64,000 bases of DNA from a virus: the IMG/VR virus record IMGVR_UViG_3300031237_000251; one strand, written 5' to 3'. The translations under genes were made by a program, and so were the position numbers. The notes below the pieces were generated by a model. It had not been told where the DNA came from and ran no database searches. It saw only the letters and a program-made list of their open reading frames with translations. This document shows, piece after piece, positions 1 through 5,404 of this stretch (its first letter is position 1; each line of letters starts with the position of its first letter).

Positions 1-17
1 CCATTTACCCACCCTAC
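1..17. repeat. Right end of a REP doublet, cut by the window edge
   Basis: ...tacccaccctac matches the 3' end of the copies at 1827-1901 and 3607-3681. Confidence 0.7.
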
Positions 18-61
18 GACTAGTGGTTCAACTTATCAGCCGTGGAGGCGAACCGCATGAA

Positions 62-122
62 ACCTAACACTAGATTCCAAGAGACGCCGCAAGCGGCGCG
101 CCCCTGAGCTTCGACGTTATGC
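62..122 (+). other. Integron attC recombination site
   Basis: R'' ACCTAAC (62-68), inner imperfect palindrome GACGCCGC-AAGC-GGCGCG, R' GTTATGC (116-122); 61 bp. Confidence 0.8.
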
Positions 123-162
123 CAAAAACACACTCAACCCAGCGGAACCAAGAAGAAAATAA

Positions 163-428
163 ATGATCGAGAGTTTAATTATCGCCTAGGTATTAACCGT
201 AATAGCTTGCCTTGCGGTACTTCTCAAAAAAATAGTTCGCTAGCATTTTTCTGGGCGGACGTAACAATGATTACCGGTAGCGTTCTCACAGTGATCGGGT
301 TGATAACACTGGTTTCAACAGGGCTAACAGCTGCTCAAGAAACAGCAACCCAGTTAATTCTTATTACCGGCGAAGCAGTAGGAGGTAACTTCATTGCCCA
401 CGCCTTCACCTCTCACAGCAACGCATAA
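163..428 (+). pseudogene. Decayed cassette gene for a small membrane protein
   Basis: ATG at 163 gives MIESLIIA*VLTVIACLAVLLKK with an in-frame TAG at 187. A 1-nt-short A7 run (226-232) shifts into the hydrophobic frame of ORF 207-428, which ends at the attC R''. Confidence 0.65.
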
Positions 429-498
429 CAATTGGTTCAAACCGCTCGCCTCGCTCACTGGGACCGACTAAAGCCGGCCCATTAACCAAACGTTAGGA
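423..498 (+). other. Integron attC site (Pseudomonas chromosomal-integron type)
   Basis: GCATAAC-AATTGGTTCAA...TTAACCAAAC-GTTAGGA, 76 bp. Its R'' GCATAAC is exactly complementary to the GTTATGC that opens this cassette. Confidence 0.9.
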
Positions 499-508
499 AT
501 CTATCCAT

Positions 509-985
509 ATGCATCTGCCAACCTACCTTATTCTGATGGGCTCAGCCATCCTTTATGGTGTCGTGCGGGCTGTCGAGCTATGGCTTACGAATAAATTGCT
601 TTTTGCGGTTTCAGTGTTCACCACCTTGGTCACACTGACCGGTGCATTAATGCAGTCCGTAAATGCTGATGATTTCGAATTCAAATGGATGCTTTGGTAT
701 TTAATACCCGTTGGATTGTTGCTTCTCGGTGGTATTCTAGGCATCAACGAATTACAAGATGCTGCGCTTTCCAAGGTTGGTGTTCAACCGCCTTCGCATG
801 TTCTCCCTGGTGTAAGCAGTGACTACAAGCACGCCGCCTGGGGGCATTTTGCTTCAATGCTTTTTCCAATAGCAGCAGCACTCTTTGCGAAGTTGGTCCA
901 TTTTGGACTGAATAGCAGAAACACTGCCAAGCGCGTGGTGGTAGACAACGGCACAGCCTTGCCTACTAATGCCAACGATAGGTAA
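509..985 (+). CDS. Cassette-encoded multi-pass membrane protein, function unknown
   Basis: Starts 10 nt after the attC R'; about 4 hydrophobic segments; the 3' end reads into a degenerate REP copy. Confidence 0.75.
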   Translation: MHLPTYLILMGSAILYGVVRAVELWLTNKLLFAVSVFTTLVTLTGALMQSVNADDFEFKWMLWYLIPVGLLLLGGILGINELQDAALSKVGVQPPSHVLPGVSSDYKHAAWGHFASMLFPIAAALFAKLVHFGLNSRNTAKRVVVDNGTALPTNANDR

Positions 986-1010
986 TCATTGCACGAGCTA
1001 GCCACCCTAC
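935..1010. repeat. Degenerate GTAG-type REP doublet
   Basis: GGTAGACAACGGCACAGCCTTGCCTAC...GCCAACGATAGGTAATC...CCACCCTAC aligns end to end with 1827-1901. Confidence 0.75.
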
Positions 1011-1051
1011 CAACTCCAATCCACAATATAGATTTTACCTTGACAAGCAAA

Positions 1052-1807
1052 ATGCAAGAAAACCCTACAGAATTCGTGAAACTAAGAAACAGAGAGCTTC
1101 ACTATCACAAGGCTCTGCTCTTGAGAATGGAGCGCGAAAACAGGAGAAGGCGCCTAATTTTTATATCCTTAGCAATGCCGCTTTTCTCCCTGATGGCAGC
1201 ACTGTTCGCCATCCTTTTACAAGGAAAAGAACTGATAGAGAAGCGTGGACTCCAAAGAGACATATCCACAATCATCATTAACGGCGGCGACTTGTCAGCA
1301 GTTAAAAGATCACTTCAGTCCTACCCAACAGCAAAGCCCTGGGCAGTTTTCTTCCCAGGAAAATCCGAACTTTATAGCCGGGACATACCACTTTCATCAG
1401 TCTTATCAGACATCAGGATTGATGCATTTCGCAGTGGAAATACTGAGATCCTAAGCACTTTGGAACCGCTGATTCACGAGAACGAAAAGACAAACCCATT
1501 CGACAAGCTCCAACCAGGCCAAAAGGACTACTTTGAAAACATAATAGCCAAAATTGACGACGAGTATCCTAAGGTATCCAACGACTTAAACAGACTAGCC
1601 GAAGAGCTATACAGACAGAACATCTTAGTTGACGAATATCTTGGCGACTCTGAAAAATCCTTCTGGATATCAATAGTTGCCTTGCTTCTATCTTTGGCCA
1701 TGGGTGGGTACCAAATATTCTCCGCCAGACCAGAGGCCATGAAAAAACTATTCTTGAGCACTCTAGAGAGTGCAGGACCTGTTGCCCCTCAGAATAAAGA
1801 AAATTAG
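1052..1807 (+). CDS. Hypothetical protein with N- and C-terminal transmembrane helices
   Basis: AT-rich ORF. The track gives a TTG start at 989 inside the REP, so ATG 1052 is preferred. TM segments LIFISLAMPLFSLMAALFAILL and FWISIVALLLSLAMGGYQIF. Confidence 0.75.
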   Translation: MQENPTEFVKLRNRELHYHKALLLRMERENRRRRLIFISLAMPLFSLMAALFAILLQGKELIEKRGLQRDISTIIINGGDLSAVKRSLQSYPTAKPWAVFFPGKSELYSRDIPLSSVLSDIRIDAFRSGNTEILSTLEPLIHENEKTNPFDKLQPGQKDYFENIIAKIDDEYPKVSNDLNRLAEELYRQNILVDEYLGDSEKSFWISIVALLLSLAMGGYQIFSARPEAMKKLFLSTLESAGPVAPQNKEN

Positions 1808-1826
1808 CAGACAGGGTAGTAAGCGC

Positions 1827-1901
1827 GTAGGGTAGACAACGGCGCAGCCTTGTCTACCGATGCCAACGGTTGGTAATCGCTCCGCGGGCTACCCACCCTA
1901 C
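1827..1901. repeat. GTAG-type REP doublet (two inverted REP hairpins)
   Basis: GTAG foot plus GGTAGACAA/TTGTCTACC hairpin, linker GCCAACGGTTGG, inverted second hairpin ending CCCTAC. Confidence 0.85.
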
Positions 1902-2256
1902 GGCTAATCACCACGCCCCCAAATGCCCGCTCCTCCCCGCCGGACCTTTCGCTCTCTCCATCCCCCCCTTCAGGCCACCTGGGTGCGGTAGGTGTGCTCG
2001 CTGGAGAGAAAGCGACGGGCGAACCTCTAGCTGGCGGAGAGCTGAGAATCAATCGCTGCCTATGCGTAGTAGCTCATTGATATGGCTAGATCAGCCACCC
2101 CTGATGTATAACTGCCGGCCGTAGTCAGAAAGTCTTCGACACTCGAGACTAGATAGAGGAAGTAAATGTGATAATAAATCTCATACACTGCGCCCACCTA
2201 GGGAGTCAGGCACTAATTAGTACCCAAGGATCATTGTATCTCGAAGGAAATCTCGC

Positions 2257-2613
2257 TTGGACATGCATGATAAAGTAATTGCTGCCTTTATAGCCTGGAT
2301 GATCAGTAGCGCACTTATTATCTGGAGCACAAGAAAGCCATCCAAATATTTCACAACCCTCACCACAAGAATGCTTATCGCAGGAATTTGCCTTTTAACT
2401 GCAACAGTCCTTTTAAATTATTACACCAGCCAAATATATTACGACCACCAGAATTACTTAACAATAGCATCCGATGGCAAAAGAGGTTCTCTTGAAGAGC
2501 GTGCACTCCTATCCATGAAAAGCCTTATAGACCTCACAGCCCTTTTTTCTAACATATTTGGCGCAAGCATTGGCGGAAACTTGATCTACAAGGCCGCATA
2601 CTCAAAGGACTGA
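2257..2613 (+). CDS. Small membrane protein (about 3 TM), function unknown
   Basis: AT-rich hydrophobic ORF; C-terminal FGASIGGNLI motif resembles GEAVGGNFI in the 163-428 pseudogene. Confidence 0.7.
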   Translation: MDMHDKVIAAFIAWMISSALIIWSTRKPSKYFTTLTTRMLIAGICLLTATVLLNYYTSQIYYDHQNYLTIASDGKRGSLEERALLSMKSLIDLTALFSNIFGASIGGNLIYKAAYSKD

Positions 2614-2661
2614 AATAAGACAATACATATAACTGCCGTCACTTCGTTTGCTGAACAGCAA

Positions 2662-2745
2662 GTAGGGTAGACAACGGCGCAGCCTTGTCTACCGTTCCTA
2701 ACGGTTAGCAAGCAAGTAGGTTAAATAAGGACGCAGCCTTGTTTT
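2662..2745. repeat. Single REP hairpin (2662-2693) plus a second very degenerate copy (2716-2745)
   Basis: GTAGGGTAGACAACGGCGCAGCCTTGTCTACC is exact; GTAGGTTAAATAAGGACGCAGCCTTG is degenerate. Confidence 0.75.
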
Positions 2746-2900
2746 TTGGGTGAGCGGAACCGTGCGGGTTGGCGGACCGGTACAGGGACCGACAGGCTGA
2801 GAGACCGCCACAAACGGCCCGCCCATAATGGGTGCAAGCCATCCCGTGGACACAGAAAACCGCTCTAACGGCGGTCTGTGTCCGCCAACGAGCTCCGGGA
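2745..2900 (-). other. Structured phage-type c4/ash-like leader remnant
   Basis: Perfect 10-bp IR GTTGGCGGAC (2768-2777)/GTCCGCCAAC (2880-2889); stem GGACACAG/CTGTGTCC (2848-2883); minus-strand peptide ...IMGGP...GPPTRTVPLT recalls Ash-family ORFs (from memory). Confidence 0.4.
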
Positions 2901-2922
2901 CAGACCATCCTATCGTTCGCCT

Positions 2923-2968
2923 CGCTAACTGGACTATCAAAAGCTACGCTTTGGCTTCCCTGTTAGCT
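2923..2968 (+). other. Short degenerate attC-like site
   Basis: CGCTAAC...CAAAAGC-TAC-GCTTTGG...GTTAGCT; only 46 bp, shorter than canonical attC, but positioned just upstream of ORF 3010. Confidence 0.45.
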
Positions 2969-3009
2969 TAATCGCTAGTCTCTTTGGCCATCTGCCCTGG
3001 GAGATATAC

Positions 3010-3567
3010 ATGGCAACGAACAACGGCCCATATTTTAGGCATTTACACCAAGAATATACCGCCATGGCTGCGAGAGTCGACGCGTACTCCACTGGCACAT
3101 TTGATGATTTCAAACTCTTTGCCGCTTTGGGTGCCCTCCTTGCCTGGAAGCCCATCGCAGATAGTTTTAGTGGTTCAGAAAAGAAACCCATAGTGCTTTT
3201 CTTGGGCTTCTTAGCAATTGCCGCTTTAGTCGTAATCATGGAAGCCCGTTCACTATTGAAGCTTTCCCTGATTCGTTACTACATGGAAAGATTGAACGAT
3301 ATTGAGACTGAAATGATCGAGTTTTCTCCCAATAAATCGACAAAGGCATTTAACATCGCACACTGCTGGGACAATTGGTATGAGAAGATACATCGCCCCA
3401 TCGGGAAGCTTTACCACGCCTTCCTATATGGGACTATCGTATTCTTGCCGATGGTCATTATTGCCTTTTCCTACAGATCTCTGTTTCTGGCCTTTCTTTA
3501 CGTAGTAATTACAGCCACTCTCTGTATCAAACTCCACCACGCTGCATTGGCTCTCACGAGAAAGTAA
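3010..3567 (+). CDS. Cassette-encoded 4-TM membrane protein, function unknown
   Basis: AT-rich ORF with 4 hydrophobic segments, preceded by GTTAGCT and followed by GGCTAAC. Confidence 0.75.
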   Translation: MATNNGPYFRHLHQEYTAMAARVDAYSTGTFDDFKLFAALGALLAWKPIADSFSGSEKKPIVLFLGFLAIAALVVIMEARSLLKLSLIRYYMERLNDIETEMIEFSPNKSTKAFNIAHCWDNWYEKIHRPIGKLYHAFLYGTIVFLPMVIIAFSYRSLFLAFLYVVITATLCIKLHHAALALTRK

Positions 3568-3580
3568 TGCGCTGTTTGAT

Positions 3581-3600
3581 GGCTAACACGGAATTCAAGC
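3581..3600 (+). other. Left half of an attC, truncated at a REP
   Basis: GGCTAAC-ACGGAATTCAAGC resembles the R''/L'' start of 423-498; no L' or R' follows, and the REP begins at 3607. Confidence 0.55.
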
Positions 3601-3606
3601 AAGCAA

Positions 3607-3681
3607 GTAGGGTAGACAACGGCACAGCCTTGTCTACCGATGCCAACGGTGGGTAATCGCTACGCGAGTTATCCACCCTAC
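3607..3681. repeat. GTAG-type REP doublet
   Basis: Near-identical to 1827-1901; similarity continues downstream through a terminator-like hairpin AAAGGCCCG/CGGGCCTTT. Confidence 0.85.
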
Positions 3682-3980
3682 GACTGACCGCCACACAGCC
3701 GCTCAAAGGCCCGCCCCTCCCCGCCGGGCCTTTCGCTTTCCAGACACCACTCCCCCTTCACGCCATCTCCACTTACACCCGCCACACCGCCTATTTCTGA
3801 ACAGGACAGGGCACCTGCTTGGCCTTACCCCAGCGTGCCAAGCGCGAGACTTTTCATGCCTCTCGAAAAATTAATTACCTGCGGAATTGATATATAAATA
3901 ACCGGCGGATATAGTAGGTCATGCAGGCGATCAGCACCTAACAGATCGCGATTCTCTCCACCACAGAGATGAGGCCCACC

Positions 3981-4163
3981 ATGCACACCACCGCCACCCT
4001 GCACGTCCATCCGGCGTGCGCCTCCAACCGCCAACTGATCGAGCGCCTCCAGGCCGCGACCGGCCGTCTCGTCGTCGTTCGCGGCGGCAAGCCCAGGCTC
4101 AGCGAGCGCAAGACGCCCCTGCCCGCCCCCTTCGACCCGAACGACGGAGGGTTCGCCGCATGA
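3981..4163 (+). CDS. Small hypothetical protein typical of Pseudomonas phage or island early regions
   Basis: MHTTATLHVHP... with an RBS-like GAGG; ATGA overlap with the next ORF. Confidence 0.6.
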   Translation: MHTTATLHVHPACASNRQLIERLQAATGRLVVVRGGKPRLSERKTPLPAPFDPNDGGFAA

Positions 4164-4236
4164 GCAGGCTTCAGCTATCGGCCAATGCCGGCGTGCGTCT
4201 CAGGGCTCAACTGAACCTGAGCGGCACCTTCACCCA
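4160..4236 (+). pseudogene. 5' fragment of a hypothetical gene fused out of frame to the integrase
   Basis: ATG 4160 MSRLQLSANAGVRLRAQLNLSGTFTH, after which the sequence switches to the integrase frame. Confidence 0.5.
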
Positions 4237-5214
4237 TACTACTACCTGGGCAAGGACGAGAACGGCAAGCGCAAGGAAATCCCTCTCGGGACCGACCTCA
4301 ACGAGGCACGTATCGAGTGGGCACGCCTGGAGCGCACAACCACTCCGAAGGTCGTCCGCTTCATGAAGGAGCTATTCGACCGGTATGAGCGCGAGATCAT
4401 TCCCACCAAGGCTCCCCGCACCCAGGCCGATAACCGGACCGAACTGAAGAATCTGCGTAGGGCGTTTGACTCTGCTCCTATCGAGGCAATCACGCCGCAC
4501 ATAGTTGCCCAGTACCGAGATGGTCGCTCAGCGAAAACCCGCGGCAACCGCGAGATCGCCTTGATGTCCCACGTCTTCACGATGGCTCGTGAGTGGGGCC
4601 ACACCGACAAGGAAAACCCCTGCGCTCGCGTGCGGCGTAACAAGGAAAAAGCCAGAGGCTACTACGCAGCGGACGACGTCTGGTCGGCTGTCTACGCCCA
4701 GGCCTGCCAGGAACTGCGCGATGCGATGGATCTGGCCTACCTCACGGGCCAGCGGCCTGCCGACACCCTAAAGGCATGCACTGGCGATCTGAGTGGAGAG
4801 TTCCTGCTTGTGGCCCAGGGCAAGACGAACAAAAAGCTCCGTATCCGGCTCTACGATGGGGAGCGGGCGACAGGCCTTGGCCAGTTCATCGACGGATTGC
4901 TGGAAAGGCGCAAGCTTGCAGGCATAACCAGCTCCAGGCTGATCACCAACGCCGGAGGTCTGCGCCTGAGCTACGCCATGATGCGTAACCGATGGGACGA
5001 GGCCAGGTCGAAGGCTGCAGCCACTGCATTGGCGAACGGCGACGAGCCCCTGGCCCAGCGGATCAAACAGTTCCGCTTTAGTGATATCCGGCCGAAGGCG
5101 GCCAGTGAAATCGATAGCTTGACCGAGGCTAGCCGGCTTCTTGGACACACCAAGGAGCAGATCACCAAGACGGTTTACCGGCGTGTCGGCGAAGTTGTGA
5201 ACCCAACCCGCTGA
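4237..5214 (+). pseudogene. int: Phage tyrosine integrase lacking its native start codon
   Basis: Catalytic motifs GQRPAD, QGKT, SDIRPKAAS, LLGHT and VYRR are intact. Integrase-like YYYLGKDENGKRKEIPLG starts at 4237, but the first in-frame ATG is at 4363. Confidence 0.8.
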
Positions 5215-5275
5215 CGTCCGCATAGTGGAAACGATCCCAAAATAATGGAAATCGCATCTGCACAAGCTGGAAATG

Positions 5276-5309
5276 AAAAAGCCCCGTAGACCTGAATCTA
5301 CGGGGCTTT
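5276..5309. terminator. Bidirectional intrinsic terminator between int and the tRNA fragment
   Basis: AAAAAGCCCCGTAGA-CCTGAA-TCTACGGGGCTTT. Confidence 0.85.
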
Positions 5310-5314
5310 CATAG

Positions 5315-5361
5315 TGGAGGCCGAGGTCGGAATCGAACCGGCGTACACGGATTTGCAATCC
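5315..5361 (-). tRNA. 3' part of tRNA-Cys(GCA) acting as an att site; not a complete tRNA
   Basis: Minus strand GGATTGCAAATCC-GTGTAC-GCCGGTTCGATTCCGAC-CTCGGCCTCCA has the anticodon arm, T-arm and CCA; the D-arm and 5' acceptor strand are absent. Confidence 0.9.
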
Positions 5362-5404
5362 GATATAAAAAGCCAGGCATCACGCGGCTTACAGGCGAAG
5401 CGGC

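Follow-up and report, generated by a model that had tools for sequence, protein, structure and literature searches.

What takes the place of the attC recombination site when an integron cassette loses it, and what follows for the array? The question is raised by positions 1-3790 of a 64,000-nucleotide virus record, IMGVR_UViG_3300031237_000251 (this whole stretch is referred to as 'the window'), where genes are followed by paired copies of a repetitive extragenic palindromic (REP) sequence. Here 'doublet' refers to one such pair, two different REPs in inverted orientation, which forms a REPIN (REP doublet forming hairpins). Cassette fixation and array decay in sedentary integrons are poorly understood. 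A full-text literature search found no description of REP doublets in place of attC, only analogies between REP with its REP-associated tyrosine transposase (RAYT) and attC with the integrase IntI.

A preliminary description of the window had placed the doublets where attC sites should be and had proposed a REP/RAYT-linked cassette system. The former observation stands, and REPIN invasion with attC replacement and homologous exchange is favoured over the latter as the better fit to the evidence. In this reading, to which we assign a probability of about 55%, region 1-3790 represents the decaying distal end of an integron-type array on the chromosome of an Azotobacter species, in which REPINs replace attC and then serve as portable homology.

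Doublets in the position of attC

Region 1-3790 has a GC content of 48-49%, versus 60-70% in the rest of the 64 kb. By its at least two canonical, co-oriented attC sites separating promoterless open reading frames (ORFs), it is a cassette array or CALIN (cluster of attC sites lacking an integrase). The sites were scored with a covariance model built here from 11 attC sites, with filters off for the window scan; two folding-based attC scans missed known sites and gave false matches, and an nhmmer profile was too insensitive, which led to the use of this model. No attC-like site was detected by it between 498 and 2883 or after 2980. The doublets reach at most 6.5 bits with this model, versus 42-72 bits for the true sites in the window, and their ends read GTAGGGT..ACCCTAC instead of the attC boxes R'' (RYYYAAC) and R' (GTTRRRY).

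REP1 (GTAGGGTAGACAACGGCRCAGCCTTGTCTACC) occurs in exact or near-exact form at 1827, 2662 and 3607, with 0 copies expected by chance and none in the remaining 60 kb of the window. Its inverted partner, REP2, is at 1872-1901 and 3652-3681. The gaps from stop codon to REP1 are 19 nt for ORF 1052, 48 nt for ORF 2257 and 39 nt for ORF 3010, in agreement with the 20-50 nt noted earlier. For ORF 509, which was said to follow the same rule, this is not the case: its frame stays open across REP1, and its stop codon at 985 lies within the doublet.

Homologues of the window genes tell what the doublets stand in for. ORF 1052 has 18 homologues (48-64% identity), and attC lies directly 3' of a homologue in five independent contexts. 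In L082 the site scores 66.5 bits, begins 19 nt past the stop codon and belongs to the first cassette after an attI-like region; in L083, L085, L086 and L087 the sites directly after the homologue score 13.7-23 bits. The ORF 3010 homologue in a Rhodocyclaceae metagenome-assembled genome (MAG; L088) is followed by an IS110-family gene and then by a weak attC-model match (14.7 bits, E 0.1). In the window, both ORF 1052 and ORF 3010 have a REP doublet 3' of the gene in place of attC.

Genome-wide statements on REP, RAYT and IntI rest on relatives, namely A. bryophylli (G001, the nearest), A. vinelandii, A. chroococcum, Azorhizophilus paspali, A. beijerinckii and one complete Azotobacter genome (G005); whole-genome attC counts are lower bounds, as only 150 candidates per genome were scored. 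Wherever canonical attC and this REP share a contig, the doublets run on the same strand as the attC sites: in the window, G001:C29, G002:C116 and G004:C123 (the last two beside intI), G005, G006:C83 and Pseudomonas linyingensis, and in the metagenome contigs L092, L095, L107, L109, L104/L091 and L099. In G005, two clusters 25 kb apart point in opposite directions; their orientation is therefore that of the local array, not of the replication strand.

The array end is visible in nine cases (window, G004, G002:C116, G005, L092, L095, L107, L109 and L104/L091), and in all nine a REP doublet comes last before GC-rich DNA begins. The gene flanking the array end is convergent in all eight relatives. 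Because the flanking genes differ (NorR-type in G004, as read by eye; HipA and DUF3775 in metagenome contigs), the terminal doublet is not a feature of one chromosomal site. No intI gene was found in A. bryophylli; the other five genomes (G002-G006) have one, intact or broken, which in G002 and G004 lies next to an array with attC and REPs.

Canonical attC sites coexist with doublets in the same arrays, and REPINs are also found within cassettes that still have attC (window 1-122; G001:C29, 302.9-303.4 kb; G004). REPIN insertion that removes or splits attC, for which there is partial evidence, would leave a cassette that IntI no longer excises and that accumulates distally. In this reading, a terminal cassette whose attC is lost or split would be out of reach of IntI, which would explain the distal pile-up of REPs. 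Cassettes retaining attC together with a REPIN could, for their part, carry the array-linked sublineage described below between genomes. A practical consequence is that attC-based integron annotation will cut such arrays short.

The repeat family and its array-linked sublineage

The consensus unit from 30 aligned copies is 75 nt long and consists of REP1, a 12-nt linker and inverted REP2, both REPs being GTAG-footed hairpins. REP1 has a 9+3-bp stem with a 1-nt bulge and a 3-nt loop, and REP2 has a 9+4-bp stem with a 1-nt bulge. Over the 25 pairs of the doublet, 95% of the cells are paired, and compensatory double changes (A·U<->G·C and U·A<->C·G) occur in 13 cells, compared with at most 6 in slid-partner controls. 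As single-stranded DNA, the doublets fold into two hairpins or a three-way form with z of -2.5 to -4.5; the degenerate doublet at 935-1010 folds no better than shuffles (z -0.1). The linker consensus reads GATGCNAACGGT, after which GGTGGG opens the REP2 stem; integrase-adjacent arrays have ACCGTATCCGGT in its place. The linker reading GCCAAC-G-GTTGG, once likened to an integron core, belongs to the 1827 copy only, and its AAC/GTT is not conserved.

Each of the six Azotobacter genomes contains 8-23 REP1 copies (at most 3 mismatches), and doublets also lie at dispersed sites in these genomes. The repeat is thus a REP/REPIN family of the genus Azotobacter, a head-to-head heterodimer akin to REPINs and to BIMEs (bacterial interspersed mosaic elements). 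GTAG-24 REPs, known from A. vinelandii, P. stutzeri and P. aeruginosa, have 12-13-bp stems with a 1-nt bulge at position 10 (PMC3733652). The window repeat fits this class as matched by its published description, not by a consensus sequence.

REP1 occurs with either of two stem variants, A·T and G·C, which differ by a compensatory change. The window copies are of the A·T type, a sublineage whose fourth stem position is an A·T pair and whose linker has 12 nt. We classed 100 REP1 copies by variant and asked whether they lie within 6 kb of markers that are REP-independent, namely attC matches or an element resembling the C4 antisense RNA (C4-like). This was so for 26 of 38 copies of the A·T type but for 2 of 62 of the G·C type (Fisher 1e-12, copies within one cluster not being independent), and the A·T type scored above the G·C type in every genome. 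Enrichment in arrays is therefore real in relatives, and REP density in arrays is not that of the background. The sublineage is nearly confined to cassette arrays and to the accretion hot spots next to them. In G005, two stretches (868.8-869.9 kb and 893.0-896.1 kb), next to attC sites at 889.3 and 891.1 kb, contain 7 of the ~17 REP copies that BLAST detects. The exact 32-mer of the A·T type is also present in Pseudomonas flexibilis, P. linyingensis, Geopseudomonas sagittaria and several MAGs, and in 23 metagenome stretches.

A RAYT gene was found with a RAYT protein query and the NCBIfam family NF047646, which detects one gene above its cut-off in each of five of the six Azotobacter genomes. 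The A. bryophylli protein (183 aa) matches E. coli TnpA-REP (PDB 4ER8) with E 4.5e-52 and scores 196 bits in NF047646 against a cut-off of 80. As the preliminary description had anticipated, the gene is flanked by the same REP: upstream lie a hairpin of the REP2 type and a REP1 that matches the window type exactly, and downstream lie two more REP2-type hairpins. REPs closely flank RAYT in G002, G004 and G005 as well. By homology and these flanks, the REP family is assigned to a single-copy group-2 RAYT (a TnpA-REP homologue), solidly for the genus and probably for the window's own genome. PF01797 (Y1_Tnp) has no match in the A. bryophylli genome nor on the RAYT protein itself (L057:1390-1941), and its strong matches in other Azotobacter genomes are IS200/IS605 transposases, not RAYT; surveys based on PF01797 will miss this RAYT group.

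Edges, rearrangements and competing explanations

The left edge of the unit is sharp at -5, with AGC at -5 to -3 in 41-43 of 47 copies, completed by either AA or GC. Conservation is lost beyond -6 on the left and after CCCTAC on the right, and the REP sites comprise 51 unrelated upstream flanks. As far as sequence can tell, such edges and flanks point to many precise-ended insertions, which is the accepted but unproven picture for REPINs in general. At 4 of 51 independent sites, TAAC, as in attC R'', lies exactly 19 nt before GTAG (Poisson P 3e-5, or 0.002 after correction for 57 offsets, sites being treated as independent after collapsing similar flanks). The fused layout is R''-N5-L''(..CAAGC)-AA-GTAG, and the window site at 3581 has it with a 4-nt slip. 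One A. bryophylli site retains the other half of attC, L'-R' (GTTAGGA), ~95 nt after a single REP1. REPINs may thus enter arrays by precise-ended, RAYT-type single-strand insertion, sometimes into attC directly after L''.

A separate case of an abutting element is seen in the A. paspali integron (L028:9690-10000), where an opposite-strand C-terminal transposase fragment, which we take to be IS110-like from its translation, adjoins the left edge of a doublet in an integrase-adjacent array. IS110/IS1111 elements are known to target REPs and attC sites (PMC11187229).

Among 53 unique REP sites, 5 pairs share the upstream flank only, 8 pairs the downstream flank only and no pair both. In the alignments, homology of at least 150 nt stops at the doublet edge or within REP2; the rearrangements ending at REP edges that had been predicted are thus seen in cross-species comparison. 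Window 1827-2003, comprising a doublet, its extension and ~30 nt of an island gene, equals the array-end junction of A. bryophylli and, in part, of A. beijerinckii. The gene behind this relic encodes 218 aa in a primase-bearing island of the two species. The junction is now internal in the window, and a second doublet-plus-extension closes the array. Two shared contexts reported before were confirmed: ~90-100 nt (~90 bp in the earlier account) are common downstream of the doublets at 1827 and 3607, and the doublets at 935 and 1827 have the upstream context TAGCAGA..AAGCGCGT in common. The doublet at L073:5361 looks chimeric by eye. Repeats of 75-165 nt would accordingly act as portable homology through which flanking modules are exchanged, deleted or duplicated, and the breakpoints at REP edges in the comparison bear this out.

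Several points weigh against REPIN invasion with attC replacement. The attC half is present at 4 of 51 sites only. Strict RYYYAAC is no commoner upstream than downstream of REPs (3 versus 4 of 53), strict GTTRRRY is not enriched downstream, and the fixed-offset test alone is significant. With few attC halves and no general excess, insertion into attC after L'' is therefore one recurrent route, not the rule. The doublets at L023:12965 and in L099 lie just after an attC, in the 5' region of a cassette, and do not replace one. When metagenomes were scanned with the 5' attC half from the ORF 3010 cassette, no pair of empty and filled sites emerged, and comparing 5' with 3' doublet halves in the one-sided pairs resolved no crossover inside the doublet. 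The REP census and the evidence on RAYT and IntI come from relatives and not from the window's own genome, and the attC model, with its 11 sites and 150 candidates per genome, yields lower bounds.

Passive accumulation is the best placed of the alternatives, if an unlikely one. Arrays that are dispensable, rich in intergenic space and recombining would tolerate REPINs, and missing attC would reflect age, with no targeting or role. Arrays indeed contain insertion sequence (IS) elements and island relics as well, 47 of 51 REP sites have no attC half, and doublet positions relative to attC vary. However, the array copies do not mirror the dispersed type of each genome but form a distinct sublineage across genera and metagenomes. 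Their co-orientation with cassettes is strict, and the attC half is in fixed register at four independent sites.

REPIN invasion can be taken further, to a speculative version that we rank below passive accumulation. A RAYT-dependent REPIN lineage might be specialised on arrays, inserting in folded single-stranded attC after L'' (next to AGC), killing the site, fixing the cassette and riding still-mobile cassettes between genomes, while REP-bounded modules exchanged at REP edges would provide a second, integrase-independent route of shuffling. If so, the lineage would be an integron parasite that also reshapes the integron. Targeting of folded attC would link two systems that read single-strand hairpins, RAYT and IntI, and offer an uncommon natural case for studying REPIN target choice and horizontal spread.

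The preliminary description had proposed that gene-REP-gene-REP units may be captured, punctuated or shuffled by REP/RAYT activity, in place of IntI or along with it. With RAYT acting at REP ends in the manner of a composite IS200/IS605-type element, this would be a cassette system that needs no IntI. Such capture could explain why the ends are precise and why a trinucleotide is conserved only on the left flank, as in IS200/IS605 targets, as well as the strictly one-way orientation within arrays, the flanks reassorting exactly at unit edges, and the REP-rich stretches that have no attC match (G002:C138, G003:C1 and G001:C30). We nonetheless judge it improbable. The flank census above has no pair sharing both sides, the same gene with both its REPs was not found at two loci, and nothing shows RAYT capturing or moving genes. 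RAYT lies 70-120 kb away from the arrays. A. beijerinckii has no RAYT above the family cut-off, though array-type doublets are present, and in three of four genomes the REP1 copies flanking RAYT are of the G·C stem type, not the array type. The opposite orientations of the two G005 clusters likewise follow the local array.

A selected 3'-end function has even less in its favour. Doublets with the extension hairpin would act as terminators or stabilisers of cassette transcripts and shield the array from the convergent gene beside it; they lie 19-48 nt past stop codons, the terminal one always faces a convergent gene, their stems are kept by compensatory change, and the extension hairpin is strong on both strands. 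That hairpin, described earlier as terminator-like in both extensions, is strong in the 3607 copy (-16.6 kcal/mol) but decayed in the 1827 copy (-3.4). The doublet itself has no T-run and was unflagged by a terminator scan, stem conservation is equally expected from RAYT recognition, and a 3'-end function leaves missing attC and flank reassortment unexplained.

That doublets are a non-canonical attC class recombined by IntI is very improbable: they share attC position and orientation and exchange at their edges, but have no AAC..GTT boxes at R''/R' and no conserved AAC/GTT in the linker, form two hairpins rather than one bulged hairpin, score too low with the attC model, and belong to a family that is dispersed genome-wide and flanks RAYT.

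REPIN invasion with attC replacement thus describes a repeat of a domesticated transposase that recurs in place of attC and marks array ends in Azotobacter, some Pseudomonas-group genomes and metagenomes. The array-marking repeat coincides with recombination breakpoints.

Layout of the array and known systems

Table 1. Features of the array region and its border, in window coordinates.
Feature	Position	Strand	Remarks
3' end of REP2 arm (..TTACCCACCCTAC)	1..20	+	doublet truncated by window start
canonical attC	62..122	+	attC covariance model R1, 41.8 bits, E 1e-9
cassette ORF, 73 aa	207..428	+	without Pfam family
canonical attC, R'' GCATAAC .. R' GTTAGGA	423..498	+	72.1 bits
ORF 509, 158 aa	509..985	+	stop codon within degenerate doublet
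degenerate REP doublet, left tag AGCGC	930..1010	+	64-73% identity (935-1010)
ORF 1052, cassette family, 251 aa	1052..1807	+	homologues elsewhere have attC directly 3'
REP doublet unit	1822..1901	+	AGCGC tag, REP1, 12-nt linker, inverted REP2
~75-nt extension shared with 3607 copy, then ~30-nt relic of island gene 3' end	1902..2003	+	DNA similarity
ORF 2257, 118 aa, membrane-like	2257..2613	+	
REP1 unit (2657-2693), then head-to-tail degenerate REP1 (2716-2750)	2657..2750	+	also in related contig L080
C4-antisense-RNA-like element	2746..2886	-	Rfam RF01695, 33.6 bits, below gathering score 45
degenerate attC, outer boxes decayed	2883..2980	+	8 bits, E 0.75 (model match 2903-2980)
ORF 3010, cassette family, 185 aa	3010..3567	+	
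attC 5' half (R'' GGCTAAC, spacer ACGGA, L'' ATTCAAGC) joined to REP unit	3581..3601	+	
REP doublet unit, AGCAA tag	3602..3681	+	final repeat of array
extension with strong hairpin at ~3705-3733	3682..3790	+	array end
phage-type integrase region	from ~3969		beyond array end

The features along the array are listed in Table 1. The array extends past the window start, and the REP2 arm there lies 41 nt 5' of an attC and is therefore inside an attC-bounded cassette. The attC at 423-498 has counterparts of 83-93% identity in arrays of three Azotobacter genomes, and the degenerate attC at 2883-2980 is 81% identical to the 3' part of a 66.8-bit A. bryophylli attC. No DNA homologues of the four REP-associated window ORFs were found in the six Azotobacter genomes, where the repeats alone match. 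The doublet unit, 80 nt with its tag, is non-coding and encodes no transposase or reverse transcriptase.

Contig L080 (Logan SRR32473249, 987 nt) comes from another sample; it is 88% identical at the protein level, shows synteny to window 2665-3655 and has the same order of REP, C4-like element, decayed attC, ORF, attC half and REP. It starts and stops within REP sequences; short-read assemblies therefore break at doublets, which hides such arrays in drafts.

The ORF 1052 homologues in L085:1956-3999 and L083:1828-4764 lie beside genes of the cyclic oligonucleotide-based anti-phage signalling (CBASS) type (CD-NTase, Cap15) and a 1256-aa nSTAND NTPase, and attC-like sites between the genes make these defence genes appear as cassettes. 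Around the island relic, the ~200-nt non-coding stretch 1998-2195, which reaches to ORF 2257, is 72% identical to L032:8530-8728, adjoining the C4-like element of A. beijerinckii C83. The window ORF at 1804-2052 (-) was considered as a piece of the 218-aa island protein and rejected, as it has no protein similarity and shares only ~30 nt of DNA.

Five of the six Azotobacter genomes keep the C4-like element at 77-84% identity; G004 is the one in which none was seen. In A. bryophylli (L060:9625-10740), it forms the leader of a Bro-N domain gene, immediately 5' of that gene and on the same strand, an arrangement like that of phage P1's c4-ant module. In G001, G003, G005 and G006, most REP/attC clusters have a copy 1-6 kb away, which, where the order was checked, is upstream of the REP cluster and reads away from the array. 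At G005:C1:872781-887490 (L022, L023), two inverted C4-like elements bracket a 14.5-kb GC-rich segment, with one REP/attC cluster outside each element.

Past the array end, the phage-type integrase is spread over two overlapping ORFs (4016-4366 and 4363-5214), possibly through a frameshift, and A. bryophylli C30:44733-45858 matches window 4237-5362 at 98% identity. No second copy of the stretch beyond the final doublet, such as a prophage att would give, was found elsewhere in the window. ARAGORN found no tRNA in the window; a match at 5318-5389 (-), tRNA-like but weak (25.5 bits, under the gathering score of 29), may be what remains of a tRNA at a phage att site.

Among known systems, the doublets are closest to the REPtron, that is, REP, BIME or REPIN with a RAYT (E. 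coli TnpA-REP, PDB 4ER8; GTAG-24, Di Nocera et al. 2013, PMC3733652). They have in common the GTAG foot, 12-bp stem and 1-nt bulge, the inverted head-to-head heterodimers, the dispersed copies and a single-copy RAYT flanked by REPs. Unlike in a REPtron, the window-type sublineage is concentrated in cassette arrays, co-oriented, in place of attC and sometimes fused to an attC half, and its exact 32-mer is common to several genera. With sedentary chromosomal integrons and CALINs, the array shares canonical attC sites and low-GC promoterless cassettes, and relatives have IntI and attI adjoining; here, however, distal cassettes end in doublets, and a doublet comes last before core DNA wherever the end is visible.

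The IS1111-attC group and the group IIC-attC introns target attC, and the doublets may likewise enter it at a fixed position, to judge by the 4 of 51 sites in register and the one site with both attC halves; the IS110-family gene between the ORF 3010 homologue and its weak attC match in L088 resembles the former. In contrast to both, the doublet encodes nothing and would need RAYT in trans, an attC half is found in ~8% of copies, and the junction is after L'', not at the R' core. Neisserial intergenic mosaic elements with dRS3 and the 'minimal mobile elements' offer a parallel for the second step, as short repeats there serve as portable homology for gene exchange in a naturally transformable bacterium. 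Those dRS3-type systems differ from the doublets in repeat family and enzyme context, and have no link to integrons.

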